Below are positions 4,300 to 19,058 of a stretch of DNA of 32,000 nt, in pieces. Origin of the DNA: Candidatus Electrothrix sp. GW3-4 (GTDB lineage Bacteria > Desulfobacterota > Desulfobulbia > Desulfobulbales > Desulfobulbaceae); assembly GCF_037902255.1 (NCBI RefSeq), contig NZ_CP147990.1, positions 2,490,001 to 2,522,000 on the forward strand, read 5' to 3'. The translations under genes and the position numbers were made by a program. Below the pieces are notes generated by a model that saw only the letters and a program-made list of their open reading frames with translations, had not been told where the DNA came from and did not search any database. Position 1 is the stretch's first letter, and every line of letters begins with the position of its first letter.

Positions 4300-5349
4300 T
4301 TGTTTTTTAAGAAAAAGACCTTAACAGGACTGGCTCGCACCTGCGGTTGAGCTGCAAAAATTGGTCCGACGGATCTGTCGGACGCGCTTGCTGGCCTTAC
4401 CCCACCTGATGACCCGAATCTGCTGGTCGGCATTGAGACCTCAGATGATGCAGCAGTGTACCGTCTGAACGACGGGGTGGCCATGATCAACACGGTCGAT
4501 TTTATCACCCCGCCGGTTGATGATCCCTATTGGTTCGGCCAGATCGCAGCGGCCAACGCTATCTCTGACGTCTACTCTATGGGGGGGCGGCCTGTTACGG
4601 CCCTCAACGTTGTGATGTTCCCCTCCAAACGACTTGACATGGGCTATCTCAAGGAAATCCTCCGGGGTGGTCATGATAAGGTCGAGGAGGCCGGGGCCTG
4701 TCTGGTCGGCGGCCATACCGTTGATGATGAGGAGCCCAAATACGGCCTTTGCGTTAACGGCGCAGTCCATCCTGAACGGGTTCTCACCAATGCGGGCTCC
4801 TTGCCCGGAGATGCCCTTATCCTCACCAAGCCCTTGGGCTCTGGGGTCCTGTTCAACGCTGTTCGCTCAAAAAAAATACCGCTTAAAGAGATTGAACAGG
4901 AATTGCTGCCCTCTCTGGCTGCCCTGAACGGAACAGCCATGGAAACAGCCCTCCGCTTTAGCCTACGCGCCTGCACCGATATTACTGGCTTTGGTATCCT
5001 TGGTCACCTGCTTGAAGTTGCCCACGGTGCCAAGGCCAGGGTCCTGCTCAACTACCGTGCCCTGCCCTTCTATGCTGGGGCCCTGGAGATGTACAAAAAA
5101 GGGGAGACAACCGGCAGCAATAAGGCCAATCGGGCCTTGGTCGCCAGGCACGACCTAAAAATGCATGCCTCTCTCTCAAAGCATGAAGAAGAACTCCTCT
5201 ATGACCCCCAGACCTCGGGCGGCCTCCTCCTTTCCGTGCCCAAAGAGCGGGCAGAGAGTTTAGTAACGGCCTTGCACAAGAACGGGGTCTATGCAGCAGT
5301 TTGCATTGGAGAGGTACTGGACGGGCCAGCAGGTATTATAGTTGAATAG
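4300..5349 (+). CDS. selD: Selenide, water dikinase (selenophosphate synthetase), selenocysteine-containing form
   Basis: The ORF track shows only 4456-5349. Reading the same frame upstream gives TTG(4300) FFKKKTLTGLARTCG-UGA(4348-4350)-AAKIGPTDLSDALAGLTPPDDPNLLVGIETSDDAAVYRL. This is the SelD N-terminal glycine-rich loop, with Sec where E. coli has the catalytic Cys. AGGAGG lies 8 nt before the TTG. Total 349 codons, the normal SelD length. Confidence 0.88.
4364..4383 (+). promoter_or_regulatory. Bacterial SECIS-like hairpin for the selD UGA
   Basis: GTCCGAC (4364-4370), loop GGATCT, GTCGGAC (4377-4383). A perfect 7-bp stem starting 13 nt after the UGA, with G residues and a U in the apical loop. 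Confidence 0.6.
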
Positions 5350-5399: not shown

Positions 5400-6413
5400 T
5401 CATGCCGTTTCCCAGCACACCCGATTCCGTCCACCTTGCTTGGCGGCATAGAGTTGCTCATCCGCCCGCCTGATATAGGCTTCGCGATTTTCTCCATAGG
5501 TATATTCGGCAATGCCGATACTGACCGTAATTCGCCCAACAGCGGAAAAGGTCTGCTCGGCAATCTGTCGGCGAAGTCTGTCGGCAATATCCGCAGCAGC
5601 TTGCAGAGATGTCTTTGGCAAACAGGCAAGGAACTCCTCTCCGCCATAGCGGATAACATAGTCGGATGTCCTCAAACAGTGCTGAATCAGGCGGGCTGTT
5701 TCAACAAGCACCGCATCCCCGGCCTGATGACCGTAGGTATCATTCACTTGCTTGAAATGATCAATGTCCAGCATCAGGATGGACAGGGCATGCTTTTTAC
5801 GCTGAGCTAAATCCATCTCATAGCACATCACATCCTCCAGCTTCCTTCTATTGAAGACACCTGTCAGATCGTCCGTGATGGCGATCTGTTTGAGCTCCTC
5901 CTGCAATTTATACTTGGTATAATGATAACTCTCCATGGTGATGACGATTTCCAGCATGATCATCTTGGTAATAGACTGAAAAGTCTCCGACTTATCCTCG
6001 GCATAGGCATCAACCAATCTTTTTATTTCCTGAAGATACTTGTTAAAGGCACCGATATACCAGAGCGGTTCAATATTCAGGGCAACATGGGTATATCCGA
6101 CATGCAAGCGGGAAAGCATGTATTCCTGATCATATTCGCCGCTGAAGAGTTGCTCAAAGTGGGCCAGCTGTTTTTCCTTCAGCCGCTGAACCGTCTCTTT
6201 ATCCTTAAAATAGATCTGGAGATCGTCAAACTCAAGCAGGTGCTGATAAAATGCGTCAAAGAGATCAACCGGGAGTTCCGGGATCAGTGCTCGAAAGGCC
6301 TTAATCCGCCGAATATCTTCTGGACCGATACCAAGGAACTCCTTGCGTCGTTCAAAGTCCTCAGGGGTGATATTGAGCTCTTTGGCAATCCGCTCTGCTG
6401 TCTTTCGATTCAT
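5400..6413 (-). CDS. Globin-coupled sensor diguanylate cyclase (sensor globin + GGDEF)
   Basis: The N-terminal ~160 aa look like a globin-coupled-sensor/protoglobin domain (...HVGYTHVALNIEPLWYIGAFNKYL...). The C-terminal GGDEF domain has an intact RYGGEEF active site. Confidence 0.85.
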   Translation of the reverse strand: MNRKTAERIAKELNITPEDFERRKEFLGIGPEDIRRIKAFRALIPELPVDLFDAFYQHLLEFDDLQIYFKDKETVQRLKEKQLAHFEQLFSGEYDQEYMLSRLHVGYTHVALNIEPLWYIGAFNKYLQEIKRLVDAYAEDKSETFQSITKMIMLEIVITMESYHYTKYKLQEELKQIAITDDLTGVFNRRKLEDVMCYEMDLAQRKKHALSILMLDIDHFKQVNDTYGHQAGDAVLVETARLIQHCLRTSDYVIRYGGEEFLACLPKTSLQAAADIADRLRRQIAEQTFSAVGRITVSIGIAEYTYGENREAYIRRADEQLYAAKQGGRNRVCWETA

Positions 6414-7000: not shown

Positions 7001-8227
7001 ATGAAAGAATCACCTTTTCTTTCCTTGCCTGTCTGGCTGCAGGAAATCCTCACAGATCCGTTTAAAAAATACCTCGTCCTCGCCCTCTGCTGTCTCGGCA
7101 TCGGTATCTCCCTGGTAGAACAGTACGCACAAGAGCATACGACCGCCCCTGAACAGGGAATCGTCTTCTTTTTTCATCGTCAATGTCCCCATTGCCAACA
7201 ACAAAAGAAGTTCAATCCCTATCTCAAGGCCAAATACCCGGAACTGCATTGGACGGAGTACGATACTGCGAACCGGGAGCATGCCCAAATCTTTGCCCGA
7301 TATGCCCGGGAAAGGGGCATGGATCAGCGTCATCTCGGGGTCCCGATGACCTTTATCGGCCCCTATGTCATCTCCGGCTTTGACAGCGGGGAGACCACCG
7401 GGGCTATGCTTGAACAGGCGATCCGGGCCTATCTGGAGGATGATCCTTCCCTTATGGAGGGGGCAGCGTTGAACGGGAAGGGAAGCGAGACCGTGGAGCT
7501 GCCCATCCTGGGAGAGATCAGGCACAGCGAGTATTCGCTTTTTTCCCTGGCCGTGCTGCTGGGTCTGGTGGACGGGTTCAATCCCTGTGCCATGTGGGTG
7601 CTGGTCTACCTGATCTCCATCGTCCTGACCCTGAAGAGCCGCAAAAAGATCTGGCTCTTGGTGGGCACCTTTGTCGGGGCCTCCGGGATACTCTACTTCC
7701 TCTTCATGACGGCCTGGCTCAACGCCTTTCTCTTCCTCGGCTATCTCCGCATCCTGACCCTGCTCATCGGCCTGATGGCGGTGGGTGTCGGCATCCTCAA
7801 CATCCGGGAATACCTGCAAACCAAGGGGGAACTGGTCTGCACCATCGGCAATGCGGCCTCGAAAAAAAAGACCATGGGCCGGATCGACCGGATCGCCCAG
7901 GCCCCGCTCAGCCTGTTCACGGTCTTCAACATCATCGTCCTGGCCTTTATCATCAACTCCATCGAGTTTGCCTGTTCAGCAGCCCTGCCAGCCATTTACA
8001 CCCATGCCCTGTCCCTGAAGGCCTTGCCAGCGATCCAGTACTATGCCTATATCCTGCTCTATGACTTCTTTTTCATGCTGGATGATCTGATCATCTTCAG
8101 CCTCGCTGTCCTGGCCCTGAACACCAATCTCGGACAACGCTATGCAAAGTACTGCAAGATCATCGGTGGGATCGTCTTGCTGCTCTTGGGCTGCATGATG
8201 GTCTTTGCACCTGATCTGCTTAGGTAG
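7001..8227 (+). CDS. Thioredoxin/glutaredoxin-fold (CPHC) domain fused to a polytopic DsbD/CcdA-like membrane domain
   Basis: 408 aa. One N-terminal TM segment, then FFFHRQCPHCQQ...GVPMTFIG (redox-active CxxC thioredoxin fold), then about 6 TM helices with a GFNPCAMW motif like the CcdA/DsbD electron-transfer core. Confidence 0.7.
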   Translation: MKESPFLSLPVWLQEILTDPFKKYLVLALCCLGIGISLVEQYAQEHTTAPEQGIVFFFHRQCPHCQQQKKFNPYLKAKYPELHWTEYDTANREHAQIFARYARERGMDQRHLGVPMTFIGPYVISGFDSGETTGAMLEQAIRAYLEDDPSLMEGAALNGKGSETVELPILGEIRHSEYSLFSLAVLLGLVDGFNPCAMWVLVYLISIVLTLKSRKKIWLLVGTFVGASGILYFLFMTAWLNAFLFLGYLRILTLLIGLMAVGVGILNIREYLQTKGELVCTIGNAASKKKTMGRIDRIAQAPLSLFTVFNIIVLAFIINSIEFACSAALPAIYTHALSLKALPAIQYYAYILLYDFFFMLDDLIIFSLAVLALNTNLGQRYAKYCKIIGGIVLLLLGCMMVFAPDLLR

Positions 8228-8256
8228 CAGCCCTGCTTATCGGCCAGATCACTCCG

Positions 8257-9351
8257 CTACTCTGATTCCTCTGAGCCTCCTCTGGTTCCCAAGCTTCGGC
8301 TTGGGAATCCCTGTCCCTGAAGTCCTGCTTCCCAGATGAAGCGGAGCTTCACGATGATCATACCCAAGCAGAGCCTGGGCACCAGCAACCAGCATTTTTT
8401 TCGGGACCAAGCCCCTCCCTGACCGTCACTACTCCGTACGTTCCTTGTCCAGGGAGGTGGCTGCCCCTTGTCCTGCGCACTACCGTGCGGCCTGAGCTTA
8501 TGACCTGAGGCAAGGCGGAAGCCGACGTTGTCGTCGCGGCGGTCCGGCGAGTAGTGGAAACGGCAGGCGGAACGGACGTTCCTGCCGTTGCCGCCCCACG
8601 AGCCGCCCCGCATAACACGGAAGGAGCCCGATGCATGGTACGGATCAGCGACCGGCTGTTCTCCTAAGTGCTCCTCCCAGCTATCCGCACACCATTCCCA
8701 GACATTGCCGTGCATCTCGTACAGACCCCAAGGGTTCGGAGGCAGGGATTTGACCGGGACGGTCTTTTTCCGATAGGCGCCTTTTTCCCCGTTAGCATAG
8801 GGACGGTTGCCGTTATAGTTCACCTGTTCCGGCGTGATATTTGTACCAAAGGAAAACGGGGTGTCCGTGCCTGCCCGACAGGCATGTTCCCATTCCGCCT
8901 CTGTGGGTAGGCGGAAGAGCATGCCTTCTTCTGTCCCTCCGGCCTCCGCAATGCGTCGATTCAGCTCGGTAATAAACTCCTGGGCATTGTCCCAGCTCAC
9001 CTCTTCCACCGGGTTGAATTTATCGTCTTGGAACTCAACAGGATTCCTACCAATAATCGCCTGCCATGCCGCCTGGGTGACAGCAGTATCGGCCAGCCAG
9101 TAGCCTCTGGTCAGGCTGACCTTATGGAAATCTTCAGTGCTTAATCGGTCTGCCTCGTCAGCTGGTGAACCCATCATAAACTCCCCGGCGCAATCCAACG
9201 GAAACGCTGGCGCAGTTGCTTTAAATCTGGTTCCAAAACTCCGGCTTGGGAACGAGGAATCTGCAGGTCGGCATAGAGACCGTATTGATCCTCTCCCCAC
9301 TCGCAGGCCCATGCCGGGGGAAAGGCGGGAGGATGAAAGTTGCTCTGGCAT
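8257..9351 (-). CDS. DGR target 1: FGE-sulfatase (SUMF1/C-type-lectin-fold) domain protein carrying VR1; N-terminal part frameshifted and start uncertain
   Basis: FGE-sulfatase motifs: EFMMGSP...GYWLADTAVTQAAW...VSWDNAQEF...RLPTEAEWEHACRAG...NPWGLYEMHGNVWEWCAD...RVMRGGSW...GFRLA. The first ~58 codons of the ORF-track model are an out-of-frame reading of the linker. The first in-frame ATG is at 9177. The last ~80 codons read through a repeat element. Confidence 0.8.
   Translation of the reverse strand: MPEQLSSSRLSPGMGLRVGRGSIRSLCRPADSSFPSRSFGTRFKATAPAFPLDCAGEFMMGSPADEADRLSTEDFHKVSLTRGYWLADTAVTQAAWQAIIGRNPVEFQDDKFNPVEEVSWDNAQEFITELNRRIAEAGGTEEGMLFRLPTEAEWEHACRAGTDTPFSFGTNITPEQVNYNGNRPYANGEKGAYRKKTVPVKSLPPNPWGLYEMHGNVWEWCADSWEEHLGEQPVADPYHASGSFRVMRGGSWGGNGRNVRSACRFHYSPDRRDDNVGFRLASGHKLRPHGSAQDKGQPPPWTRNVRSSDGQGGAWSRKKCWLLVPRLCLGMIIVKLRFIWEAGLQGQGFPSRSLGTRGGSEESE
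8284..8390. repeat. Structured ~105-nt repeat, copy A (left island boundary, inside the target-1 3-prime tail)
   Basis: GGTTCCCAAGCTTCGGCTTGGGAATCC...GATGAAGCGGAGCTTCAC...CCCAAGCAGAGCCTGGGCACCAGC. About 85 percent similar by eye to copies at 11458-11557 and 17323-17431, in the same orientation. Confidence 0.7.
8475..8490 (-). promoter_or_regulatory. Short GC hairpin 14 nt 3-prime of VR1 (candidate DGR target-recognition structure)
   Basis: GCGCAC-TACC-GTGCGG: a 5-bp CGCAC/GTGCG stem with a 4-nt loop. Identical sequence at the same offset from VR2 (11641-11656). Absent next to the TR. Confidence 0.35.
8505..8628 (-). repeat. DGR variable region VR1
   Basis: 124 bp aligning without gaps to TR 9752-9875. 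15 mismatches, all at TR plus-strand T positions, which are A on the coding strand. Encodes GSFRVMRGGSWGGNGRNVRSACRFHYSPDRRDDNVGFRLAS. Confidence 0.9.
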
Positions 9352-9548
9352 CTAACTTCTGATCTCAGTGCTCCTCGTTCACTTCGGTACCCGACCTCCT
9401 GCTCGAGTACCCCCTGTGCAGCAGGTGCAGCAACCGTCGTATCGGCATCATTATCTCGTTGCCGCGCTGCTGGCGCATCGTGCGTCTGCTTTCGTTCAGC
9501 ACGAAATATCAGACGCTCTGTCCATTGACGAATTCCTGATTTTGCCAC
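9174..9548 (-). pseudogene. Upstream piece of target 1, separated from the FGS domain by a 1-nt frameshift
   Basis: Ends ...PPAWACEWGEDQYGLYADLQIPRSQAGVLEPDLKQLRQRFRWIAPGSL*. RFRWIAPG is the first strand of the FGE-sulfatase domain, which continues as EFMMGS in the other frame. Compared with paralog 12350-12366, one nt is missing near 9183-9190. Confidence 0.45.
9229..9253. repeat. Solo hairpin core of the repeat family (degenerate), in the target-1 linker
   Basis: GGTTCCAAAACTCCGGCTTGGGAAC, related to GGTTCCCAAGCTCCGGCTTGGGAAC. Confidence 0.5.
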
Positions 9549-9751
9549 CGAAAGACTACCTTGATTGACGGTGACCTGAAAAGTTCGGTCACCTGGAAAC
9601 GGATAAACAGTCAGGTGTTCATGGCAACAAGCATCCGCTTGGCATTACCAACGTGACTGCCACCTTGTTATTCGCTTTTAACCTGAAAAAAATCCGGAAA
9701 AAAGACAGGGCCTGATTTGGTCATGAGCGGTTGTTCCAATGCAACTCTGAG

Positions 9752-9875
9752 CTGAGGCAAGGCGGAAGCCGTTGTTGTCGTTGCGGTTGTCCGGCGAGTT
9801 GTGGTTACGGTAGGCGGAACGGACGTTCCTGCCGTTGTTGTTCCACGAGCCGCCCCGCATAACACGGTTGGAGCC
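9752..9875 (-). repeat. DGR template region (TR), non-coding
   Basis: Third copy of the 124-bp repeat. On the minus strand it carries 11 AAC codons (GSNRVMRGGSWNNNGRNVRSAYRNHNSPDNRNDNNGFRLAS). It has no FGS context around it and lies 62 nt downstream of the RT stop. Confidence 0.9.
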
Positions 9876-9898
9876 TTTGCAATCATAACCCTTTTCCT

Positions 9899-9934
9899 GG
9901 TTCCCAAGCTCCGGCTTGGGGTTCCAACGGGAAC
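9899..9934. repeat. Solo hairpin core between RT stop and TR
   Basis: GGTTCCCAAGCTCCGGCTTGGGGTTCC (CCCAAGC/GCTTGGG stem), immediately followed by GTTCC-AACG-GGAAC. Confidence 0.55.
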
Positions 9935-9937
9935 AGC

Positions 9938-10945
9938 CTATACATCCGGGGGCGGTTTATCCAATAATTGTTTCTTCCGCCATGCGGAACTGTCGGTTCC
10001 CTGTGCAACAGCATGGACGGCTGCATACGCTGTCTGTAATTGACAATCACTTAGGTTTCCTTGTTCATATTCCTGTTCCCAATACCGTCGCCTTCGGTTG
10101 ATTGTCTGTTTTCGCCGCCGACTTAATCGAACAATACCCTGCATGATCCTGAACCCGCAATAGGTCACTCCGGTTCGACAGGGAAGAATCTGCACATTGG
10201 ATTTAACTGTCAGTAAGCGTCGTTCCTGTAAATAATCAGCAACATCCCTCAGAGTGCACTTGGCATCTTTTTTTGAAGGACACCACCAAATAATATCATC
10301 CATATAACGAACAGCAGCAGTGACCTGCCGATGAGATGTCAGCAGACGATCCAGCCCGTCCAGATAGAAATTGGCAAAGTATTGAGAAGTCAGGGAGCCG
10401 ATGGGAAGTCCTTTCTCCTCCATATCAGGACAACTTTTTATAATGCGATACAGCTGATAATGAAACCGGTTCCCCTTAAAATGCCGCATAAGCAAACGAA
10501 GGAGAATCTCATGGTCTATTGCTGAAAAGTAAGCTGAAATATCAATTTTTACAAGCCACAGAAAACGCCGGAGATTTTTCTGTACCTGCTGAACAACCCT
10601 ATGCACCCCTTTGTTTTGTCGGCAGGCATAACTATGATGGACCATACTTTTTTCCAGTCGTTCTCCTGTCACGTTCATTACGGCATGATGAAAGATTCTG
10701 TCTTCAAAACAGGCTGCATGTATCAGACGTTTTTTCGGATCATGAATCTGAAAAGCCCTGAAGCGACCGTAGGGCATTTTTTCAGCAAGAATATCTCGGG
10801 CCATTCTGGAGAGCCTGCTGTCAAGTTCGCTGTAAAATTCCTGAACAATCCTGCGATGTCGCTTTCCTCTTGAAGCCTTATGCAGAGCAAGGCAAAGGTT
10901 CCTGTAATCAGCGATTTCTTCCAATGACACCTTTTGTCGTTTCAT
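9938..10945 (-). CDS. DGR-type reverse transcriptase
   Basis: 335 aa. RT motifs include IGSLTSQYFANFYL (the DGR-specific [ILV]GxxxSQ signature) and the catalytic YMDD. The size and the adjacent TR are typical of DGR RTs. Confidence 0.95.
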   Translation of the reverse strand: MKRQKVSLEEIADYRNLCLALHKASRGKRHRRIVQEFYSELDSRLSRMARDILAEKMPYGRFRAFQIHDPKKRLIHAACFEDRIFHHAVMNVTGERLEKSMVHHSYACRQNKGVHRVVQQVQKNLRRFLWLVKIDISAYFSAIDHEILLRLLMRHFKGNRFHYQLYRIIKSCPDMEEKGLPIGSLTSQYFANFYLDGLDRLLTSHRQVTAAVRYMDDIIWWCPSKKDAKCTLRDVADYLQERRLLTVKSNVQILPCRTGVTYCGFRIMQGIVRLSRRRKQTINRRRRYWEQEYEQGNLSDCQLQTAYAAVHAVAQGTDSSAWRKKQLLDKPPPDV

Positions 10946-10954
10946 CCAGTTTCA

Positions 10955-11287
10955 TCACTGTTCGAGGTGCTGTTTTTTTCGGCATTGCTCAAGGCAGGAG
11001 AGAAATTGTGCACTATATTTTTCAACCCGTGCCTGACCGATACCTTTTCCAGCAGATAACGCGGTATTTGAGCATATATTATCAGTGACCATCCATGCAA
11101 GCTGCGCATTGGTAAAGACGGCGTAGGCTGGAATACCCTCGTCCTCTGCTATCTGCTTTCTTAGATTACGGAGTTCTGCATATACTGAAAAGTCTTCAGG
11201 TGACAGTATCTCCTTGTAGTCCACCTGACTTTTCTTCCTGCCCGTTTTTGCCAGATCACCCATGGGAGCATGTTCAGCGGTTGTCAC
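10955..11287 (-). CDS. HRDC-domain DGR accessory protein
   Basis: 110 aa. SVYAELRNLRKQIAEDEGIPAYAVFTNAQLAWMV...ALSAGKGIGQARVEKYSAQFL matches the HRDC helical-bundle pattern seen in RecQ and RNase D C-termini. It sits 9 nt upstream of the RT on the same strand. Confidence 0.75.
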   Translation of the reverse strand: MTTAEHAPMGDLAKTGRKKSQVDYKEILSPEDFSVYAELRNLRKQIAEDEGIPAYAVFTNAQLAWMVTDNICSNTALSAGKGIGQARVEKYSAQFLSCLEQCRKKQHLEQ

Positions 11288-11457
11288 GCAGATCGACCAG
11301 AAACTGTTTGCACCGTCCTGAACAAAATTTTTTCTATACTCACAACCTGGTGCTGATTGACAAAACGATTCAGTTCAGTTTCGATCTCTTCCGGAAACTG
11401 TGCAGGAACAGCAAAAAATTTCAGCAAAACGGTTTCTCCCGAGAAGAAGTATCTTTT

Positions 11458-11557
11458 GGTTCCTCCGGCTTGGGAACTCTATTTCTGAAGCTCTGCTTCA
11501 CAGATGAAGCGGAGCTTCACGATGTTCGTGCCCAAGCAGAGCTTGGGGGCACCAGCG
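11458..11557. repeat. Structured repeat, copy B (first hairpin truncated), inside the target-2 3-prime tail
   Basis: GGTTCC--TCCGGCTTGGGAAC...GCTCTGCTTCACAGATGAAGCGGAGCTTCACGATGTTCGTGCCCAAGCAGAGCTTGGGGGCACCAGC. Confidence 0.7.
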
Positions 11558-12526
11558 CTTAAAAAATCGGGGCCAAACACCTCCCTGACCGTCACTACTC
11601 CGTACGTTCCTTGTCCAGGGAGGTGCCTGCCCCTTGCCCTGCGCACTACCGTGCGGCCTGAGCTTATGACCTGAGGCAAGGCGGAAGCCGTAGTCGTCGT
11701 CGCGGTAGTCCGGCGAGCGGTGGAGACGGTAGGCGGAACGGACGCTCCTGCCGTAGAGGTCCCACGAGCCGCCCCGCATAACACGGTCGGAGCCAGAGGT
11801 GTCATTGTATGGATCAGAGACAGCCTCTTCGCCTAAATTCTCCTCCCAGCTATCCGCACACCATTCCCAGACATTGCCGTGCATTTCATACAGTCCCCAA
11901 GGATTGGGCGGCAGGGATTTTACCGGGACGGTCTTTTCCCGATACTTCCCTTTTTCTCCGTCCGCATAGGGATGGTTGCCGTCATAATTCACCTGTTCAG
12001 AGGTGATATTTTTACCAAAGGAAAACGGGGTGTCTGTGCCTGCCCGGCAGGCATGTTCCCATTCCGCCTCCGTGGGCAGGCGGAAGAGCATCCCCTCTTC
12101 TGTCCCTCCCGCCTCCGCAAGGCGTCGATTCAGTTCGGCAATAAACTCCTGGGCATTGTCCCAGCTCACCTCTTCCACCGGGTTGAATTTATCGTCTTGG
12201 AACTCAGCAGGATTCCTACCAATAATCGCCTGCCATGCCGCCTGGGTGACAGCAGTATCGGCCAGCCAGTAGCCTCTGGTCAAGGTGACCTGGTGGTAAT
12301 CTTCATCGCCATCGCGTTCTTTTTCATCCGGCGGTGAACCCATCATAAACTCACCCGCCGGAATCCAACGAAAACGCTGGCGCAGGTTCTTTTCTCCGGT
12401 CCCCAAGCCGAAGCTTGGGGACCAGCGGAAGCTTGGGAACAAGGAATATGCAGGTCCGCATAGAGGCCAAAGCAATCCTGTCCTACCGCACTTGCCCACT
12501 TGGGTTTTATTAGCGCCTGCAGGCAC
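11498..12526 (-). CDS. DGR target 2: FGE-sulfatase domain module carrying VR2; probably the displaced C-terminal domain of the 677-aa ORF, start uncertain
   Basis: ...NLRQRFRWIPAGEFMMGSPPDEKERDGDEDYHQVTLTRGYWLADTAVTQAAW... Highly similar to target 1 outside the VR. There is no ATG or SD at the ORF-track GTG start. The first ATG (12346) overlaps the upstream stop as ATGA. Confidence 0.85.
   Translation of the reverse strand: MPAGANKTQVGKCGRTGLLWPLCGPAYSLFPSFRWSPSFGLGTGEKNLRQRFRWIPAGEFMMGSPPDEKERDGDEDYHQVTLTRGYWLADTAVTQAAWQAIIGRNPAEFQDDKFNPVEEVSWDNAQEFIAELNRRLAEAGGTEEGMLFRLPTEAEWEHACRAGTDTPFSFGKNITSEQVNYDGNHPYADGEKGKYREKTVPVKSLPPNPWGLYEMHGNVWEWCADSWEENLGEEAVSDPYNDTSGSDRVMRGGSWDLYGRSVRSAYRLHRSPDYRDDDYGFRLASGHKLRPHGSAQGKGQAPPWTRNVRSSDGQGGVWPRFFKRWCPQALLGHEHREAPLHL
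11641..11656 (-). promoter_or_regulatory. Short GC hairpin 14 nt 3-prime of VR2
   Basis: Same GCGCAC-TACC-GTGCGG as at 8475-8490. Confidence 0.35.
11671..11794 (-). repeat. DGR variable region VR2
   Basis: 124 bp, ungapped against the TR. 14 mismatches, all at TR adenines on the coding strand. Encodes GSDRVMRGGSWDLYGRSVRSAYRLHRSPDYRDDDYGFRLAS. Confidence 0.9.
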
Positions 12527-14376
12527 AGCTCGGTCAGATCGGTTTTGATGCTGCGAACCTCCAGCAACGAAATTTCTTCAGCATCGGTTATCGACTGCAC
12601 CTGCTCGGTCAGCGGATCAGGCAGGTCCACCGAGCAACTGCTGTCGTCGCTCAGGACCAGCTTGATCGCCGGTCGGCGATAGGAAAGAGCGGCCAGCAGA
12701 CTGGTATGCTGCTGCGGGACCTGGGTGGGCACATGGCGGGCAACGACCAACCGTCTGCCCTGCTGACAGAGCCAGACTCTCTGCTCCGGCTGCTCATTCG
12801 AAGGAAGCAACTCAGGGTCCAGGGCATGGCCGCTCCGGCTGGTGGGTTGGCCCGGATTGAGCTGGGAGAAAATGGTCTGCAGCTCCCTATACGCCACACC
12901 CCGTTGCACAGCAGGCCCGCACATCCGACTCTCCAGACGGATGGCCCAGGCCTGACAGGCAGGGTCGGCCAGTTTTCCCTGGGCAGACAGCTGCGTAAGA
13001 AAGGCACAACCCGTCTGGATATCCTGCTCCATTACCTTCCGTTCCTGCCCCTGAAAAACCGCCTCCTTGTCCAGCAGGGCCTCGACATTGAGCAGCTCCT
13101 CAAACCAGATCTCCTCCGCCAGGGGCTGCCGCCAATACCTGAGCTGCTGTAGGGCGAAGCGCTGCTCTTCCGGCGGCAAGGTCGCGAATTTTTGCAACCG
13201 CTCTTTACGGGCCTGGCTATGGAAGGTGGCTGCCACATTATGCGGTTCCCGGATATCCGGGTGCTGCCAGCACAGGGCCTCGATTACTGCGGGCGGCTGC
13301 GCCCCGAAACGGTGCATCCCCAGACGGAGGCAACGCAGGAGCTGGGGTTCCAGGCGCAGAGCCGGGGCAGCCAGGGTAAGCAGCTGTTCTGTCCAGTCGT
13401 TCTGCCTGTCCGGGCCTTCTTCTATATCTGCGGGGAAGGGCCGGGCCTGTGCATCCCAGCTGAGACAGCGGATCTGTCGCCGGACAAGGGCGGGATAGTC
13501 GGCAGGCGCACAGGGCGTCAGCAGGGTGATTGGATTGCCGTTGCGCAACAGGCACTGCACCAGCTGCTGATACTGCTGCTGGCGCCGGTTGAAGCTGCGG
13601 GGCTCCCTACCGGCCTGCTGCGACAGCCGCCCCAGATCGCTGAGCAGCAGGACCGGGGTCCCGGTGGGCGGCAGGCGAAAGGGCTGGAGGACAAAATCCC
13701 TGCTGATCTGCCGGGGTTCTGTGTCGCCGTTGGTGATCACGGCCCTACTGATCTGTCCCGACCCAAAGGTGTCGTACAGGTGCAGGGTGAGCCAGGTATG
13801 ATCCGACCAGAACGGGGTGAGATGGACCTGGCGGTCATCAATGATCTGCAGGGCGTCCAGGCTCTGCTGCTGCGCCGTGACAGGCAGTCTGCCGGGAAAT
13901 TCCGCCCGGCTGAGCTTGTCAATGAGAACCGGCAGATCAATGGAGCGCCCCCCCTGGCAGTCCAGGGCCAGCCAGGGAAAGAGGCGGGTACGCAGGTCTT
14001 CCAGGCTGGTCAGGGCCGGATATACCGGTGGTACCTCGGGACGGTTCTGCCAGGCGACCGGGCGGGTACTGATGACCGTCTCTTTCCTTTTTTCTTGCTC
14101 CTGTTTTCGACGCTCTGCAGCATCCTTGAGCGATGCATAACGGACAAGCTGGAGATAGCGGGCCGTGAGTTGGGCGGTGGGGCTGCGGTTCAGAACAGGA
14201 GTAAAACTTACTGGCTGGCCGGTGACTGTAATTGAGGCTGATTGAATAGCAAACCGGGTTGTTTCTCCGGCTTCATAGCGCAGGCCTAATTCTCGGCCAA
14301 TCCTGTTGCCAAGCTGCTGATCTCCTTCAGCCAGGGCCACGAGCAGGTCGGCCCGGCTGAGCTGGCCTGGTTTCAT
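12343..14376 (-). CDS. 677-aa protein of unknown function; its C-terminus carries the pre-FGS linker motif
   Basis: Long ORF whose ATG overlaps the AAA+ stop as ATGA. I recognise no catalytic motif. It ends ...KPKWASAVGQDCFGLYADLHI, then reads out of frame through a hairpin-repeat insertion into the FGS module. Confidence 0.8.
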   Translation of the reverse strand: MKPGQLSRADLLVALAEGDQQLGNRIGRELGLRYEAGETTRFAIQSASITVTGQPVSFTPVLNRSPTAQLTARYLQLVRYASLKDAAERRKQEQEKRKETVISTRPVAWQNRPEVPPVYPALTSLEDLRTRLFPWLALDCQGGRSIDLPVLIDKLSRAEFPGRLPVTAQQQSLDALQIIDDRQVHLTPFWSDHTWLTLHLYDTFGSGQISRAVITNGDTEPRQISRDFVLQPFRLPPTGTPVLLLSDLGRLSQQAGREPRSFNRRQQQYQQLVQCLLRNGNPITLLTPCAPADYPALVRRQIRCLSWDAQARPFPADIEEGPDRQNDWTEQLLTLAAPALRLEPQLLRCLRLGMHRFGAQPPAVIEALCWQHPDIREPHNVAATFHSQARKERLQKFATLPPEEQRFALQQLRYWRQPLAEEIWFEELLNVEALLDKEAVFQGQERKVMEQDIQTGCAFLTQLSAQGKLADPACQAWAIRLESRMCGPAVQRGVAYRELQTIFSQLNPGQPTSRSGHALDPELLPSNEQPEQRVWLCQQGRRLVVARHVPTQVPQQHTSLLAALSYRRPAIKLVLSDDSSCSVDLPDPLTEQVQSITDAEEISLLEVRSIKTDLTELCLQALIKPKWASAVGQDCFGLYADLHIPCSQASAGPQASAWGPEKRTCASVFVGFRRVSL
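12398..12440. repeat. Hairpin-repeat insertion (one full and one half core) in the 677-aa/FGS linker
   Basis: GGTCCCCAAGCCGAAGCTTGGGGACC (8-bp stem CCCCAAGC/GCTTGGGG) followed by AGCGGAAGCTTGGGAAC. Confidence 0.6.
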
Positions 14377-15449
14377 GGTGCCTCAGCCAGGCTGTCCCGG
14401 GGAAAATCGGGATGCTTTTTCGAGGTGAAGCGGGACAGGGTAGTGAGCAGCTCGACAAACTCCTCTGGGCTCCGTTCCTTCTTCAGCTTATCCATGCCCC
14501 GCAGCAGGTCAAAATACTCGGCCTGACCGGGCAGGGGGTGGAGATTTTTCTCCTGGGCAAGGGCCCTGTCATTCAGGATCATTTCAGCGGCAGCCTGCAA
14601 CACATTTTTATCACGCTCCATTTTGTCGTTTTCCAATTCGGGAAAATTCGGCGCGCCGTGCTTAACCAGATAGGCCACCTGCTCCGCACGATTTTCCGGC
14701 AGGCCCAGGGTCACGGAGAGACAACGGCGGATAAAGGCATCCGGCAGGATCCGTTCCTCATTGGTGGTGATGATGATGAGGGGAGGGATGCCCTCGGCCT
14801 CCACCGGCCTGTCCATCCCTTCGGGATGGAAGCGGTTTGCCCCCAGGACCTCCAGCAGGCCGTTGGGCACGCTGCTGTCGGCCTTGTCGATTTCATCGAT
14901 CAGGACAACGGCTCCGTTGCTTTCCGCCTTGTCCGCATTGAGATAATGGGCCATGGGATTTTCAGAAAGACCGCAGGGATCTTCCGCCTTTTCACCGACA
15001 CCGGCTTGCTGCCGACAGGACTGAATTTTTGCATACTGTTTCCCAGCCGATTGCCAGTTCAGGGCCTGCCAAAGCGGGCCGGGAGAGAGATAGTTGGCCT
15101 TGGCAAGGCGCTCCCTTGCCCGGCAGCGTTCGTTTTCATCCTTACATAAGGCCCCCTCTATCTGGGCATCCGCCAGCCGGGCCACGGCATCAAAGGAACA
15201 GAGCAGGTCCTTGGCCTCGGTGGAATGGTTGACCGTGAAAGGGATATAGGTGCGTTTGAGGGCCGCAGCGGCTGCCTTGGCCAGCTGGCTCTTGCCAGCA
15301 CCGGGTTCGCCCCGGATCAGCAGGGGCCGGTTGATGGCCAGGGCCGCGTTGACGGCATCAATGGCGTCCTGCTCAAAGACGTAGATGTGTTCTTCACCGT
15401 GGTCGTTGGTGATGGTCGGACGGGCACCTTTGAGTATCTTATTCTTCAT
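14373..15449 (-). CDS. MoxR-like AAA+ ATPase (AAA_5 type)
   Basis: 358 aa. Walker A LLIRGEPGAGKSQLA, Walker B AVVLIDEIDKAD, then NGLLEVL...PLIIITTNEERILPDAFIRRC (sensor and arginine region), as in the MoxR/CbbQ/NorQ class. Confidence 0.88.
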   Translation of the reverse strand: MKNKILKGARPTITNDHGEEHIYVFEQDAIDAVNAALAINRPLLIRGEPGAGKSQLAKAAAAALKRTYIPFTVNHSTEAKDLLCSFDAVARLADAQIEGALCKDENERCRARERLAKANYLSPGPLWQALNWQSAGKQYAKIQSCRQQAGVGEKAEDPCGLSENPMAHYLNADKAESNGAVVLIDEIDKADSSVPNGLLEVLGANRFHPEGMDRPVEAEGIPPLIIITTNEERILPDAFIRRCLSVTLGLPENRAEQVAYLVKHGAPNFPELENDKMERDKNVLQAAAEMILNDRALAQEKNLHPLPGQAEYFDLLRGMDKLKKERSPEEFVELLTTLSRFTSKKHPDFPRDSLAEAP

Positions 15450-16923
15450 CGTGTTTTCTTTCAGCTATAAGGGCGGGCAGATTAATAAGCAAAGGGAGTT
15501 CCGCTTTTTCAAGGTCGGGATTTCCCGCGGCCAAATTCAAGATGATCAAGTTGGGATATTCCTCTGCATACTTGGCGAGTTTCTTCAGTTCTTCACTTCC
15601 GAAACGGACAATGAGATAAAAACTGTTTCCCTCTTTTCGTGCTTGGCTCAACCGCCCGTTAACCAGGTTTTTTGGATTAAATCCCGGCTGATCCTTTGCA
15701 AAGCGCTCTGCCAGTAGGTTATCCAGGGCTGACGTGGAAAGAATATTTTTATTTAGGACATCAAAGACATGTATGCCGTCTTTATCAATACCGTTTTCAG
15801 GCGGTGAGGAGAGGGCAAAACGCCCCCGCATAACAAAGGCTCTGTAGTCCTGTTTCGTTTTCCCAGCAGGACGGGAGGCAGTAACATAGGCCTTGCGGCA
15901 ATCAAAAGCAGCCATACTGCATTCCGCAGCAACGTCGCAGATACAGTCGATATCAATTGCCCCCTCTGCTGACCGATCGATCACCACTGATTGGTTGATA
16001 AAATACCACGGCAATAGGGCCAGAGCCAAGGTCCGTCTGTCTTCCTGATTCGTGTCCAGCTGTTCAATATACTCTAAAAAATCTGGGAGACTCTGCTGCA
16101 CCAGCTCACGGACAACCTGTCCCGGCTCTGCTGAACCGCCCAACGCCTTTTTCAGGTTTGCTTTCTCATTGAGCATCTGGTCAGCAAGTTTGAGAATTTT
16201 TTCCGATTTTGTGCTGTAGCTAGTATCAAATTTCTGGAGGATACGCCTGAATTCTTCGTCTCCATCCCATAGGCGTTTGAGGTAAACAGCTGTCAGACGA
16301 TTCGGAATAACCTCTTTTTTCCTTTCCGAATCATACTCAAAATATCTGCGAAGAATTCCGGCAAGTTTTCCTTGGATAAAAATCGGACTCCCGGATGCTT
16401 CACGCCAGTCTCTCATGCAGGGCAACGTAGTAGTAACATTCAGCTGAAGATGTTTACCCCCAGCGGCAGGGGCTTCAAAAGTCCCGGAGAAGAGTTCCAA
16501 TCCATCTGTATCTTGAGTTTCTCTGTTATAATATGGATAACCGCCGCCTTTCCAGTCTCCGGGTTCTTCAAGTTCATTGAGGAGCAATAGGTCAATGTTA
16601 GCTGCGGCCTGTTCACAGTGCAGCAACACTATATCATACTCTTCAGATGCAAAGAGAATACCCTCTTCATCCAACAGACCTTGCAGAGTTGTTGCCTGAA
16701 AAGTAATCTCATAGTCGGTATCTTTGGCCCCCTGTGACCTGATGTGCACAAGTATAGGGCGCTGATTATCGTATGCGCCATCAGCAGCGGCAAAACCGTG
16801 ACGGCAGGTGATAAGAATCCCATTACCGAGGATATAACCGGAAAAATACCTGTGCGCCTTCACACCCTTGCTTATGGTGGGTAGAGCAAGACGAACTATC
16901 CGATTTTGGATTTCCTCTCTCAA
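15439..16923 (-). CDS. Trypsin-like serine protease (N-terminal ~215 aa) fused to an unrecognised ~280-aa C-terminal domain
   Basis: Catalytic-triad contexts: ILITCRHGF (His), EYDIVLLH (Asp), EASGSPIF (Ser), in the order and spacing of the chymotrypsin fold. TTG start overlaps the upstream stop (TTGA), with GGAG 7 nt upstream. Confidence 0.8.
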   Translation of the reverse strand: MREEIQNRIVRLALPTISKGVKAHRYFSGYILGNGILITCRHGFAAADGAYDNQRPILVHIRSQGAKDTDYEITFQATTLQGLLDEEGILFASEEYDIVLLHCEQAAANIDLLLLNELEEPGDWKGGGYPYYNRETQDTDGLELFSGTFEAPAAGGKHLQLNVTTTLPCMRDWREASGSPIFIQGKLAGILRRYFEYDSERKKEVIPNRLTAVYLKRLWDGDEEFRRILQKFDTSYSTKSEKILKLADQMLNEKANLKKALGGSAEPGQVVRELVQQSLPDFLEYIEQLDTNQEDRRTLALALLPWYFINQSVVIDRSAEGAIDIDCICDVAAECSMAAFDCRKAYVTASRPAGKTKQDYRAFVMRGRFALSSPPENGIDKDGIHVFDVLNKNILSTSALDNLLAERFAKDQPGFNPKNLVNGRLSQARKEGNSFYLIVRFGSEELKKLAKYAEEYPNLIILNLAAGNPDLEKAELPLLINLPALIAERKHDEE

Positions 16924-17285
16924 CGATCATCTCCAGCGAGATTCACATTAGAATCATCGGCATTTTTGGCCGCTAAACTCAGTTTAATCTTCTGTTCAGA
17001 GACCTTTTGATATTCCCCTTCCGCACTGAGATCAATTTGTGCGCCCACCTTTCCCACCAGATATTTGACCAGGCCCTCGCTGAGGTCTACCTTGCCAACG
17101 GCCTTGCCGCCCCCTTTGACCTTCTTGGCAATGGTCAGGTTGAGCTCCAGCTCAATATCCTTCACACCAAAGCGAATCTGCTTCCCTTCTCCCTGCGCTT
17201 GCGCCTTTTCCAGCTCACTCCTCAAGCCCTCAATCACCTCTGCCAACTCAACAACTGTTGCTGCCTGGGTGTCTTTCTCGCCCAT
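16920..17285 (-). CDS. Trypco2-like (trypsin-co-occurring domain 2) small protein
   Basis: 121 aa. LAEVIEGLRSELEKAQAQGEGKQIRFGVKDIELELNLTI...GGGKA...QKIKLSL matches my memory of the trypco2 pattern: a helix, then R-F-x-V-x-x-hELEh, a Gly-rich loop, then h-K-h-x-L. It sits directly upstream of a trypsin-like protease. AGGAGGG RBS. Confidence 0.65.
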   Translation of the reverse strand: MGEKDTQAATVVELAEVIEGLRSELEKAQAQGEGKQIRFGVKDIELELNLTIAKKVKGGGKAVGKVDLSEGLVKYLVGKVGAQIDLSAEGEYQKVSEQKIKLSLAAKNADDSNVNLAGDDR

Positions 17286-17322
17286 GATATCCCTCCTGAG
17301 TAAATTTTTTCCTGATGTTCCT

Positions 17323-17431
17323 GGTTCCCAAGCTCCGACTTGGGAATCCCTGCTCTGGAAGCTCTGCTTCCCATATGAAGCGGAGCTTCATGGTGTTCGT
17401 CCCCAAGCAGAGCCAGGGAACCAGCGGAACC
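17323..17431. repeat. Structured repeat, copy C (right island boundary, between cbiD stop and trypco2 start)
   Basis: H1: GGTTCCCAAG-CTCCGA-CTTGGGAATC. Outer stem GCTCTGCTT (17361-17369) / AAGCAGAGC (17405-17413), enclosing ATGAAGC-GGA-GCTTCAT (17375-17391). Confidence 0.7.
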
Positions 17432-17452: not shown

Positions 17453-18544
17453 TCAAACCTGCTCAATCACGCCGTCCTCCGAGGTCACAAGATAAACGCT
17501 GACCGGGAGGCCGGAGCATTCCTTTGCATATTGCCGGGCCTTACGACAGACGGCCCGCACCAGATCGTCCCTGTTCTTTTCCTGTAGGCGCTGCAAGATC
17601 TCCCGGGCCGTATTGGCCTGCCTCATCCGGGCAACGCTGTCCCGATCCAGCCCCAGCTCCCCCAGGAGATCGGCGGCCTGCTCCATCTCCAGGGCCCCAT
17701 TGCGGACATGGGTCTGGGGTATGCAGAGGGCGCCCTTGAGGACCTTGGCCCACATGCCCGCCAGATGTATTTCACGGAAGCCATGCCGACCAGCCGCTTT
17801 CAAGGCATATTCCAGATAATCCCCCATCATTACTTGGGCCTCTTCCGGGAGTTGAAGGAGCTTCTGCACGGCGGCCTCTGAGGTCCGCCCTGTGGAAAGG
17901 ATGACCTGGTCCAGCCCGGCGGCCCGAGCCACCTGCATGGAGGCATCAATGGTGTCGGTCCAGGCCTTGGCCGAGACCGGTCGGACAATGCCGGTGGTGC
18001 CCAGGATGGACAGACCACCGATGATGCCCAGGCGCCGATTCAGGGTCTTTTCTGCCAGCTCTTCCCCATCACGGACAGAGATGGTCACCAGCAAGGATAC
18101 CGGCTTCGGCAGGGAGTCCGTCACTTCAGTTATTGCTTCGGCCACGGCCTCCCGGATCATCTGGCGGGGCACCGGGTTAATAGCCGGTTCCCCCACCGCA
18201 ATGGAGAGGCCGGGCTTGGTCACGGTCCCTACGCCAGTACCGGCCCGGATCGTCACCGTCTCATCGCCCTCACCTGCTGCTTCCTTACTGACTTTGCGGA
18301 CAACGGCAATAATCTCGGCCCCGTTGGTCACGTCCGGGTCATCACCGGCATCCTTGATGACAGAGGCGCTTGCCGTATTATCTTCCAGGGTACAGATATG
18401 GAGTGAAAAACAACGACGCTCTCCATCCGGGAAAGGGATATCCACCTGTTGTGGGTAGGATTCACCAAGTAGCATAAGGGTAGCAGCCTTAGCCGCAGCA
18501 GCAGCGCAGGCGCCAGTGGTATAGCCGGATCGGAGTTCAGCCAT
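17453..18544 (-). CDS. cbiD: Cobalt-precorrin-5B (C1)-methyltransferase CbiD
   Basis: [21 protein letters not shown]...[14 protein letters not shown]...[24 protein letters not shown] are typical CbiD motifs. I chose ATG 18544. The ORF-track extension to 18709 overlaps the upstream macro-domain gene and looks non-coding. Confidence 0.88.
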
Positions 18545-19058
18545 TTTCTCCGTCGTACCTGGAAAGGGCCTGAGTGAATGCCGAGATTGCGGCCTGATTG
18601 AAACAGCAGATAGAGACGGTTGCAATCTTTCCGGGATGGGCATGAAGAAAGGTCGCGATCTCTCGCACGGCGATGTCCGCAGCCTGCGGCAGGGGATACC
18701 CATAAACACCGCAGCTTATGGCTGGGAAGGCTATTGTGCGCAGGTTATGCTTCAAGGCAAGTGCCAGAGAGGTGCGGTAGCAACTGGCAAGCAATTCAGG
18801 TTCTTGCTGCTTGCCGCCGCGCCAGATAGGCCCGACGGTATGAATGACATGGCGGGCAGGCAGGTTATGACCTCCTGTGATCCTTGCCGCGCCAGTATGG
18901 CAGCCGTTGAGCTGCCTGCACTCTGCAAGCAGTCCTGGTCCAGCGGCACGGTGAATCGCCCCATCAACGCCACCGCCTCCGAGCAACGAGCGGTTTGCGG
19001 CATTGACGATCGCGTCAGCCTGGAGGGTTGTTATGTCTGCCTTGATTACTTCAAGCAT
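18537..19058 (-). CDS. Macro-domain protein (O-acetyl-ADP-ribose deacetylase-like)
   Basis: 173 aa. [26 protein letters not shown]...VIHTVGPIW...[14 protein letters not shown] is the canonical macro-domain signature. Confidence 0.9.

Follow-up and report, generated by a model that had tools for sequence, protein, structure and literature searches.

A probable two-target, HRDC-type diversity-generating retroelement on the chromosome of a relative of the cable bacteria

A 32,000-nt stretch of the chromosome of Candidatus Electrothrix sp. GW3-4 (contig NZ_CP147990.1, positions 2,490,001 to 2,522,000; hereafter the window) contains three closely similar segments around a reverse transcriptase (RT) gene. 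This raises the question of whether these segments are the template repeat (TR) and two variable repeats (VRs) of a diversity-generating retroelement (DGR), as an original prediction from the nucleotide sequence had proposed, and what such an element would diversify. The present analysis indicates that the locus is very probably a genuine chromosomal DGR of the HRDC-accessory type in a host related to cable bacteria, and that the ligand-binding tips of two FGE-sulfatase domains have been diversified by it. All coordinates are window positions (Table 1), and the TR, the VRs and the cassette genes are compared on the minus strand, which is the coding strand.

In a computed alignment, the segments 8505-8628 (VR1) and 11671-11794 (VR2) match 9752-9875 of the TR without gaps, with 15 and 14 mismatches, respectively, just as predicted. 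All of these mismatches (29/29 over both VRs) fall on adenines of the TR, which has 29 adenines, and the non-adenine positions are identical in TR, VR1 and VR2 (95/95). The chance of every mismatch landing on an adenine is 9.7e-12 for VR1 and 7.1e-11 for VR2 (hypergeometric), and the proposed adenine bias is thus confirmed at p ~1e-11 per VR with zero non-adenine mismatches. Between VR1 and VR2 there are 16 differences, each at a TR adenine, in agreement with the claim that the two have been rewritten separately. The codon on the 5' side of the TR start given earlier (9876-9878) is AAA in the TR, TCG in VR1 and TCT in VR2, and therefore the TR probably spans 9752-9878. At the other end, the first non-adenine mismatch is a C in the TR (9751) that is G in both VRs (8504 and 11670), which marks the 3' end of TR-VR homology.

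The TR carries 11 in-frame AAC codons by count and lies outside the FGE-sulfatase genes, between the RT stop (9938) and the short-target start (9548), so that these two statements of the original prediction stand as well. Its estimate of ~10^13 variants from the AAC codons is arithmetically right (15^11 = 8.6e12); all adenine-containing TR codons together allow ~10^16.3 protein variants, and a stop codon is impossible. In both targets the VRs form the last ~40 residues of the FGE-sulfatase domain match. The paralogous target sequences flanking the VRs differ from each other at 37/300 positions on the 5' side (12%) and at 5/100 on the 3' side (5%). No further VR was found in the window.

The RT gene is intact. 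Its open reading frame (ORF) contains LPIGSLTSQYFAN and RYMDDII, which bears out the DGR-type motif and the YMDD box noted before. The best match of the RT in a PDB sequence search is 8ub7, the RT of the Bordetella phage DGR (328 aa; E=4.6e-38), with the IGSLTSQ motif aligned, whereas group II intron and retron-type RTs match at E ~1e-11. Against NCBIfam, the RT stays far under the cut-offs of the group II, retron and Drt models. By these match scores it is nearer to DGR RTs than to those of group II introns or retrons, as had been supposed. No close relative of the RT was found in the viral contigs of an IMG/VR scan.

A genome scan with the RT yielded 18 loci, the closest of which is in Ca. 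Electrothrix laxa (RT 75% identical in amino acids, aligned end-to-end); others are in Thiothrix, Methylococcales, an Escarpia endosymbiont, a deltaproteobacterial metagenome-assembled genome (MAG) and more. Nearly all of them have the layout that is common to sixteen related loci, namely, in this order, a MoxR ATPase, a long target (~880-1050 aa, with a VR at the end of its FGE-sulfatase domain), an accessory gene, the RT, the TR and a short target (~270-310 aa, with a VR). Since this layout is common to nearly all loci, one TR with two VRs is the norm of this RT lineage; the description 'one TR, two rewritten VRs' therefore holds as a fact but not as a special feature. In the related loci the TR/VR mismatches are likewise at adenines only, and the pattern recurs with the same RT in >12 independent loci. 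The TRs of the window and of E. laxa differ from each other at 10/95 common non-adenine positions, although within each of the two genomes both VRs equal their own TR at every non-adenine position. This lineage-specific matching of TR and VRs, together with the divergence of the paralogue flanks, points to a flow of information from TR to VR in each lineage. A differently arranged locus is found in a closer relative (L024, ENA ERZ23877643; L025, GCA_003704795.1), of which the long target is 68% identical: the short target directly follows the long target, the accessory gene, RT and TR are absent between them, the C-terminus of the long target is not TR-like and a VR-like segment is present in the short target only. 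Just downstream of the E. laxa DGR (L002:12720-16655) lie a second MoxR-like gene (441 aa) and the gene of an 863-aa FGE-sulfatase protein, the C-terminus of which has no TR match; this pair appears to be an undiversified paralogous system.

The two targets of the window are 88% identical to each other as against ~75% to their E. laxa orthologues. The long target corresponds to one 885-aa ORF in E. laxa, and its full-length homologues all have 881-950 aa with a C-terminal FGE-sulfatase domain. Homologues of the long target and of the predicted 494-aa peptidase encoded upstream come nearly all from Ca. Electrothrix MAGs. The 677-aa N-terminal extension of the long target has no match in Pfam, NCBIfam, PADLOC or PDB sequence searches. 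Its residues ~170-340 are an alpha/beta domain with the invariant motifs IIDDRQ and LLLSDLG, of which Foldseek matches to NorD and to the CMG2 vWA domain are weak and non-significant (E 0.08-0.24). NorD is the vWA partner of the MoxR-type protein NorQ. The alpha/beta domain may be a degenerate vWA domain. The short target begins at a GTG codon (9548), in the same way as its L024 orthologue, and carries an in-frame palindrome insert of 21 nt at 9233-9250; its intact orthologue in L024 begins with MAKSKIRQW... and reads RFRWIAPGEFMMGSP. An exact-protein look-up of target 1, the 677-aa ORF and the 124-aa ORF gave no record.

Both target ORFs run on past the VRs. That these tails form a conserved protein domain was rejected, because a 2-nt indel separates them while their DNA is 80-95% identical; they consist of conserved non-coding hairpins and a repeat element. 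The claim that the tails arose by loss of a stop codon was also dropped, as the reading GH.LRP... matches gammaproteobacterial relatives, which also have tails of 45-66 aa.

The accessory gene lies directly upstream of the RT gene. Accessory proteins of this family have 158-177 aa and combine an N-terminal domain, with the motif MKxKFFxIPV...LNxF...FVADGxNSFWxICV, and an HRDC domain. The N-terminal domain (~65 aa; ~11300-11427 in the window) is conserved in loci L002-L017 and has no Pfam match.

A conserved structured RNA of ~150 nt immediately follows the TR and is present in all 16 loci aligned. In this alignment, pairing is seen in 90.6% of the cells, in comparison to 30-37% with slid partners, compensatory changes occur in 21/25 pairs, and 0/500 shuffles matched the observed covariation score. 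No Rfam match at E<=1 was found in 8000-12700. The TR of the Bordetella phage BPP-1 is followed by a spacer (Sp) of ~140 nt, a required element that folds back onto the TR and serves to prime the cDNA (PMC6182149). The window RNA resembles Sp in its position and in having a conserved structure, and by analogy it may play an Sp-like role in cDNA priming. More tentatively, this RNA and the N-domain/HRDC accessory protein could together form a counterpart, independent of Avd, to the Sp/Avd priming module of BPP-1. The conserved GGAU-containing loop would then pair with GGCUUCCG at the 3' end of the TR and so fix where the cDNA starts, and the priming nucleotide would come from a conserved A-rich stretch, which reads GCAAAAAGCAA in most loci.

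The TR and the VRs have a common GC-rich 3' end, GGCTTCCGCCTTGCCTCAG. In the related loci compared, the boundary after it reads AG/CTCA in the TR and AG/GTCA in the VR, with the single exception of the L013 TR (AG/CGCA). A short GC hairpin follows each VR of the window at a distance of 16 nt, and equivalent hairpins with other stems and a 3-4-nt G-rich loop are present in related loci. The VR-3' hairpin of phage DGRs, which is required, has a published consensus of a GRNA loop, a 7-10 bp stem and a distance of 4-34 bp (PMC3240598); the window hairpins agree with it in loop and distance. A second, longer stem-loop 3' of the VRs is seen in cable-bacterium-type loci. Its 17-nt loop motif, ACAAGGAACGTACGGAG, occurs at 8432-8448 and 11598-11614 of the window, at L002:9424-9440 and 12265-12281 and at L020:1190-1206, and in these three genomes it is confined to sites 60-75 nt downstream of VRs; it could serve in target recognition or belong to a 3' untranslated region. 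The only informative item of a promoter/terminator scan was a terminator-like match after VR2 (11590-11571).

These elements should be distinguished from a multi-hairpin repeat of ~107 nt. Its three window copies share ~80% identity, and it ends in GGTTCCCAAGC-NNNN-GCTTGGGAACC. Two copies follow the VR flanks closely on the 3' side, and the target ORFs extend through them. The repeat is also found at L002:2215-2335 and at L020 ~1240-1330, and appears to be a repetitive extragenic palindrome- or miniature inverted-repeat transposable element-like (REP/MITE-like) repeat of Electrothrix-type genomes. Its terminal palindrome stands alone in the linkers of both targets (9233-9250 and 12402-12419) and between the RT stop and the TR (9903-9920), none of which is present at the equivalent E. 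laxa sites. In total, 5 matches to the terminal palindrome were found in the window, where 0.26 are expected. The large palindromes were considered as DGR target hairpins and rejected, since they belong to a dispersed repeat that also occurs outside the cassette and is absent from the E. laxa DGR.

The long target is preceded by three genes, for a Trypco2 (trypsin-co-occurring domain 2) protein, a 494-aa protein and a MoxR-like AAA+ ATPase. The Trypco2 gene, the first of the operon, is also in Logan contig L021 and lies upstream in L002, L005, L006, L007, L009 and L017. The 494-aa protein has no match, VMAP included, in Pfam, NCBIfam, PADLOC and PDB sequence searches. In 12 homologues its H42, D97 and S177 are invariant, and the top Foldseek PDB matches of its N-terminal domain are DegQ, DegP, HtrA, Esp and V8 (E ~1e-8 to 1e-7); the predicted fold and the invariant H/D/S suggest that it is a trypsin-like peptidase. 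The ATPase scores just above the bpMoxR cut-off (28.6 bits vs 27), and at least 14 related loci likewise have a MoxR-like ATPase gene immediately before that of the long target. The operon would be of the conflict or sensor type described for multicellular bacteria, with a presumed sensor function. Farther away, the window encodes a protoglobin-GGDEF diguanylate cyclase (5400-6413), a Macro-domain protein (18537-19058), a PAS-GGDEF-EAL protein (19153-21972) and SelB (21980-23923). An in-frame TGA at 4348-4350, between ...ARTCG and AAKIGP, precedes an AIR-synthase-related (SelD-like) ORF (4456-5349) and is probably a selenocysteine codon.

Table 1. Features of the DGR locus and the adjoining operon, in order of window position (AF2, structure prediction; pLDDT, predicted local distance difference test).
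Feature	Position	Strand	Basis or remark
Short target	8257-9548	minus	GTG start 9548; Pfam PF03781, 2.8e-46; listed ORF 8257-9351
Multi-hairpin repeat copy	8279-8385	minus	read through by target-1 ORF
Long stem-loop 3' of VR1	8403-8467	minus	loop motif ACAAGGAACGTACGGAG (8432-8448)
Short GC hairpin CGCAC-GGTA-GTGCG	8476-8489	minus	16 nt 3' of VR1; DNA fold
VR1	8505-8631	minus	mismatches at TR adenines 15/15; 18/18 including AAA codon
Conserved structured RNA, ~150 nt	9601-9751	minus	directly 3' of TR; 16-locus alignment
Helix P4 of the RNA	9652-9664 with 9601-9616		
Inner hairpin of the RNA	9628-9642		GGAU loop
A-rich motif of the RNA	9665-9679		
P2 hairpin of the RNA	9721-9751		
TR	9752-9878	minus	non-coding; 11 AAC codons in VR frame
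Solo palindrome CCCAAGC-TCCG-GCTTGGG	9903-9920		between RT stop and TR
DGR reverse transcriptase, 335 aa	9938-10945	minus	intact; RVT_1, 1.8e-17
Accessory gene, N-terminal domain + HRDC	10955-11427	minus	Pfam HRDC, 1e-13; directly upstream of RT
Multi-hairpin repeat copy	11457-11555	minus	3'-truncated
Long target, FGE-sulfatase (C-type-lectin fold) ORF, 342 aa	11498-12526	minus	Pfam PF03781, E=1.3e-47
Long stem-loop 3' of VR2	11570-11633	minus	loop motif ACAAGGAACGTACGGAG, then T-run; DNA fold z=-3.65
Short GC hairpin CGCAC-GGTA-GTGCG	11642-11655	minus	16 nt 3' of VR2; GRNA-fitting loop; DNA fold
VR2	11671-11797	minus	mismatches at TR adenines 14/14; 17/17 including AAA codon
Long target, N-terminal 677-aa extension	12343-14376	minus	as assembled; stop codon after frameshift
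Long-target linker insert	12396-12437		palindrome GGTCCCCAAGC-TTCG-GCTTGGGGACC; frame-setting CC run 12427-12428
MoxR-like AAA+ ATPase	14373-15449	minus	Pfam AAA_5, 1e-11
494-aa protein, trypsin-like N-terminal domain	15439-16923	minus	AF2 N-terminal domain pLDDT 70-90
Trypco2 gene, first of operon	16920-17285	minus	Pfam PF19631, E=3.7e-16
Multi-hairpin repeat copy	17317-17424		outside cassette

From these components a course of events can be proposed. The RT gene would probably be co-transcribed with the TR and the structured RNA, which, being positionally equivalent to the Sp RNA of the Bordetella phage, might fold back on the TR to prime cDNA synthesis. The RT, aided by the N-domain/HRDC protein, would copy the TR into cDNA with adenines misread, and this cDNA would replace VR1 and VR2, targeted by the GC-rich end and presumably by the VR-3' hairpins. 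The family-conserved C (TR) or G (VR) at the boundary plausibly spares the TR from being overwritten. One of the tips diversified in this way would be the C-terminus of a ~900-aa protein encoded directly after Trypco2, the trypsin-like peptidase and the MoxR-like ATPase, and the other would belong to a short stand-alone paralogue.

Several observations weigh against such a fully working DGR. As assembled, 3/4 of the protein-coding genes of the cassette are frameshifted, while no split gene is found elsewhere in the window (~27 kb), so that the word 'complete' in the original prediction applies to the set of components, all present, and not to intact genes. The accessory gene is reduced to an HRDC ORF (10955-11287) by a frameshift in an A6 run (11328-11333) between the conserved N-domain and the HRDC part; the run is A7 in E. 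laxa, and Logan contig L001 is 100% identical to the window at this gene, A6 included. A 1-nt deletion at 9183-9186 of the short target, judged against the long-target paralogue, E. laxa and the intact L024 orthologue, puts the FGE-sulfatase domain in the frame of the ORF 8257-9351. The long target is split into ORFs of 677 aa and 342 aa. Its linker has 71 nt in the window vs 33 nt in E. laxa and contains a perfect palindrome with an 11-bp stem, and this 71-nt length shifts the frame. Two Logan contigs from sibling runs (L021 and L022; 11.8 and 4.2 kb) match the window letter for letter save one extra C at 12427-12428 (CCC), which makes the linker 72 nt long and in frame and gives a single ORF of ~959 aa. 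Programmed -1 frameshifting at the palindrome was rejected, since a slippery heptamer is absent upstream. Also unfavourable are a metagenome scan for population variants by the TR/VR pattern, which returned solely L020, an 82%-identical relative, and the Logan contigs of three sibling runs, which all break at the TR/VR and paralogue repeats. The VR-proximal hairpin has a stem of only 5 bp, against 7-10 bp in phage DGRs, and the predicted pairing of the TR 3' end with the GGAU loop shows solely GC-to-GU changes and no compensatory covariation. Finally, no vWA or VMAP domain was detected in the operon proteins by Pfam, and hence the operon is not a canonical MoxR-vWA-VMAP ternary system.

Could the repeats then have arisen without any DGR, as paralogous copies under gene conversion with an adenine bias by chance or by mutation? 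The concerted evolution of the targets does reach past the VRs, as seen from their higher identity to each other than to the E. laxa orthologues. Gene conversion between paralogues is nevertheless ruled out as the source, because it would erase, not create, the 16 VR1-VR2 differences confined to TR-adenine positions. The TR, as the third copy, does not code for protein and is rich in A precisely at the variable codons, and neither the chance of an all-adenine pattern calculated above nor its recurrence beside the same RT in independent loci agrees with such an origin, which has next to no probability. It is unlikely, too, that the VRs as assembled are a consensus or a chimera of the haplotypes in a heterogeneous population, with no single cell that carries them. 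The sibling-run assemblies break at the repeats as they would at repeated or polymorphic regions, and the L024 and L025 assemblies diverge exactly at the VR 3' boundary; such breaks are, however, also expected from long identical stretches of three repeats, and a chimera would still use adenine-site variants only, which leaves the assignment as a DGR unaffected.

A recently disabled DGR, in which VR diversity records past activity while the cassette decays by frameshifts and palindromic-repeat insertions, is a possible though doubtful alternative. It would account for the 1-nt A-run contraction shared with an independent sibling contig, the short-target deletion, the absence of split ORFs from the flanking genes and the repeats or palindromes inserted in the two linkers, 5' of the TR and downstream of each VR. 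On the other hand, the lack of any non-adenine difference between TR and VRs places the last retrohoming recently relative to the flanks of the paralogues, which have diverged by 5-12%. The intact RT can be aligned end-to-end with its orthologue, the HRDC domain and both FGE-sulfatase domains are still open reading frames, and the frameshift of the long target is absent in two sibling assemblies. Since the frameshifts are found within or next to short homopolymer runs, they may be assembly errors. Alternatively, the homopolymer frameshifts (A6/A7 of the accessory gene and CC/CCC of the long target) might be reversible switches by which DGR activity or sensor expression is phase-varied. Over 16 kb of contigs from sibling samples, the window departs from them only in the C-run of the target linker, and slippage by -1 at the accessory-gene AAA codon would give back exactly the conserved peptide IEKNFV. 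Nevertheless, with 2-3 C and 6-7 A the runs are short for slippage to be efficient, a one-base difference between assemblies fits a consensus error equally well, and the short-target deletion drops a T beside a G-run and is not a simple change in run length; such switching thus seems quite improbable. A genuine DGR remains the preferred reading of the locus.

The DGR of BPP-1 has a homologous RT with an identical IGSLTSQ motif, adenine-only mismatches, a VR at the C-terminus of a C-type-lectin-fold domain, a GC-rich, A-poor common TR/VR 3' end, a GRNA-loop GC hairpin 3' of the VR and a structured non-coding RNA 3' of the TR, all as in the window. It differs in that the window has an N-domain/HRDC accessory protein instead of Avd, the order accessory-RT-TR instead of avd-TR-brt, two targets in a cellular operon instead of a phage tail fibre, a hairpin stem of 5 bp instead of 8 bp and an additional conserved stem-loop 3' of each VR. 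In a survey of DGRs (Wu et al., 2018; PMC5758913), 13% had two targets and 4% had HRDC genes. The HRDC DGRs ('Architecture C', e.g. TvpA of Treponema denticola; PMC5758913) combine an HRDC accessory gene with an FGE-sulfatase-type target as in the window, although the RT lineage of the window has a fixed order of long target, accessory gene, RT, TR and short target and an extra N-terminal domain in the accessory protein. DGR targets that adjoin a MoxR gene and have an unassigned N-terminal extension have been described, as have trypsin-like peptidases (Dore et al., 2024, PMC10907252; Kaur et al., 2020, PMC7159879). Like the window, DGR 8/9 of Thiohalocapsa PB-PSB1 ('clade 5A', PMC10907252) and the DGR-linked FGS effectors that Kaur et al. 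(PMC7159879) describe for MoxR-vWA ternary systems have a MoxR-like ATPase directly upstream of the target, and these MoxR-linked DGRs share with it an extension without a recognised domain, an adjoining trypsin-like peptidase with Trypco, and filamentous or multicellular hosts. The window is distinguished from them by its host, which belongs to the Desulfobulbaceae/cable bacteria, and by the lack of detectable vWA and VMAP; a peptidase without VMAP agrees with the 'variation' described for DGR 9 (PMC10907252). No report pairing 'diversity-generating retroelement' with 'cable bacteria' was found in the searchable literature. The DGR itself, its two-target layout and the FGE-type scaffold are already known, and no new mechanism is involved; the likely cable-bacterium host, the conserved RNA 3' of the TR, the VR-flank elements and the partly frameshifted cassette are added.

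Collectively, a filamentous, multicellular sulfide-oxidising lineage, that of cable-bacterium relatives, is added to those in which a DGR is coupled to a MoxR/peptidase sensor operon, and such a host fits the proposal that multicellular bacteria characteristically have hypervariable 'antigen sensors' of this sort. The comparative set also exposes conserved elements of an Avd-less lineage, namely the TR-3' RNA, the C/G boundary mark and the VR-flank hairpins, which can be tested for their parts in priming and target recognition. If the Avd-independent priming module is real, it would be an undescribed RNA family and a tractable model for priming in HRDC-type DGRs.

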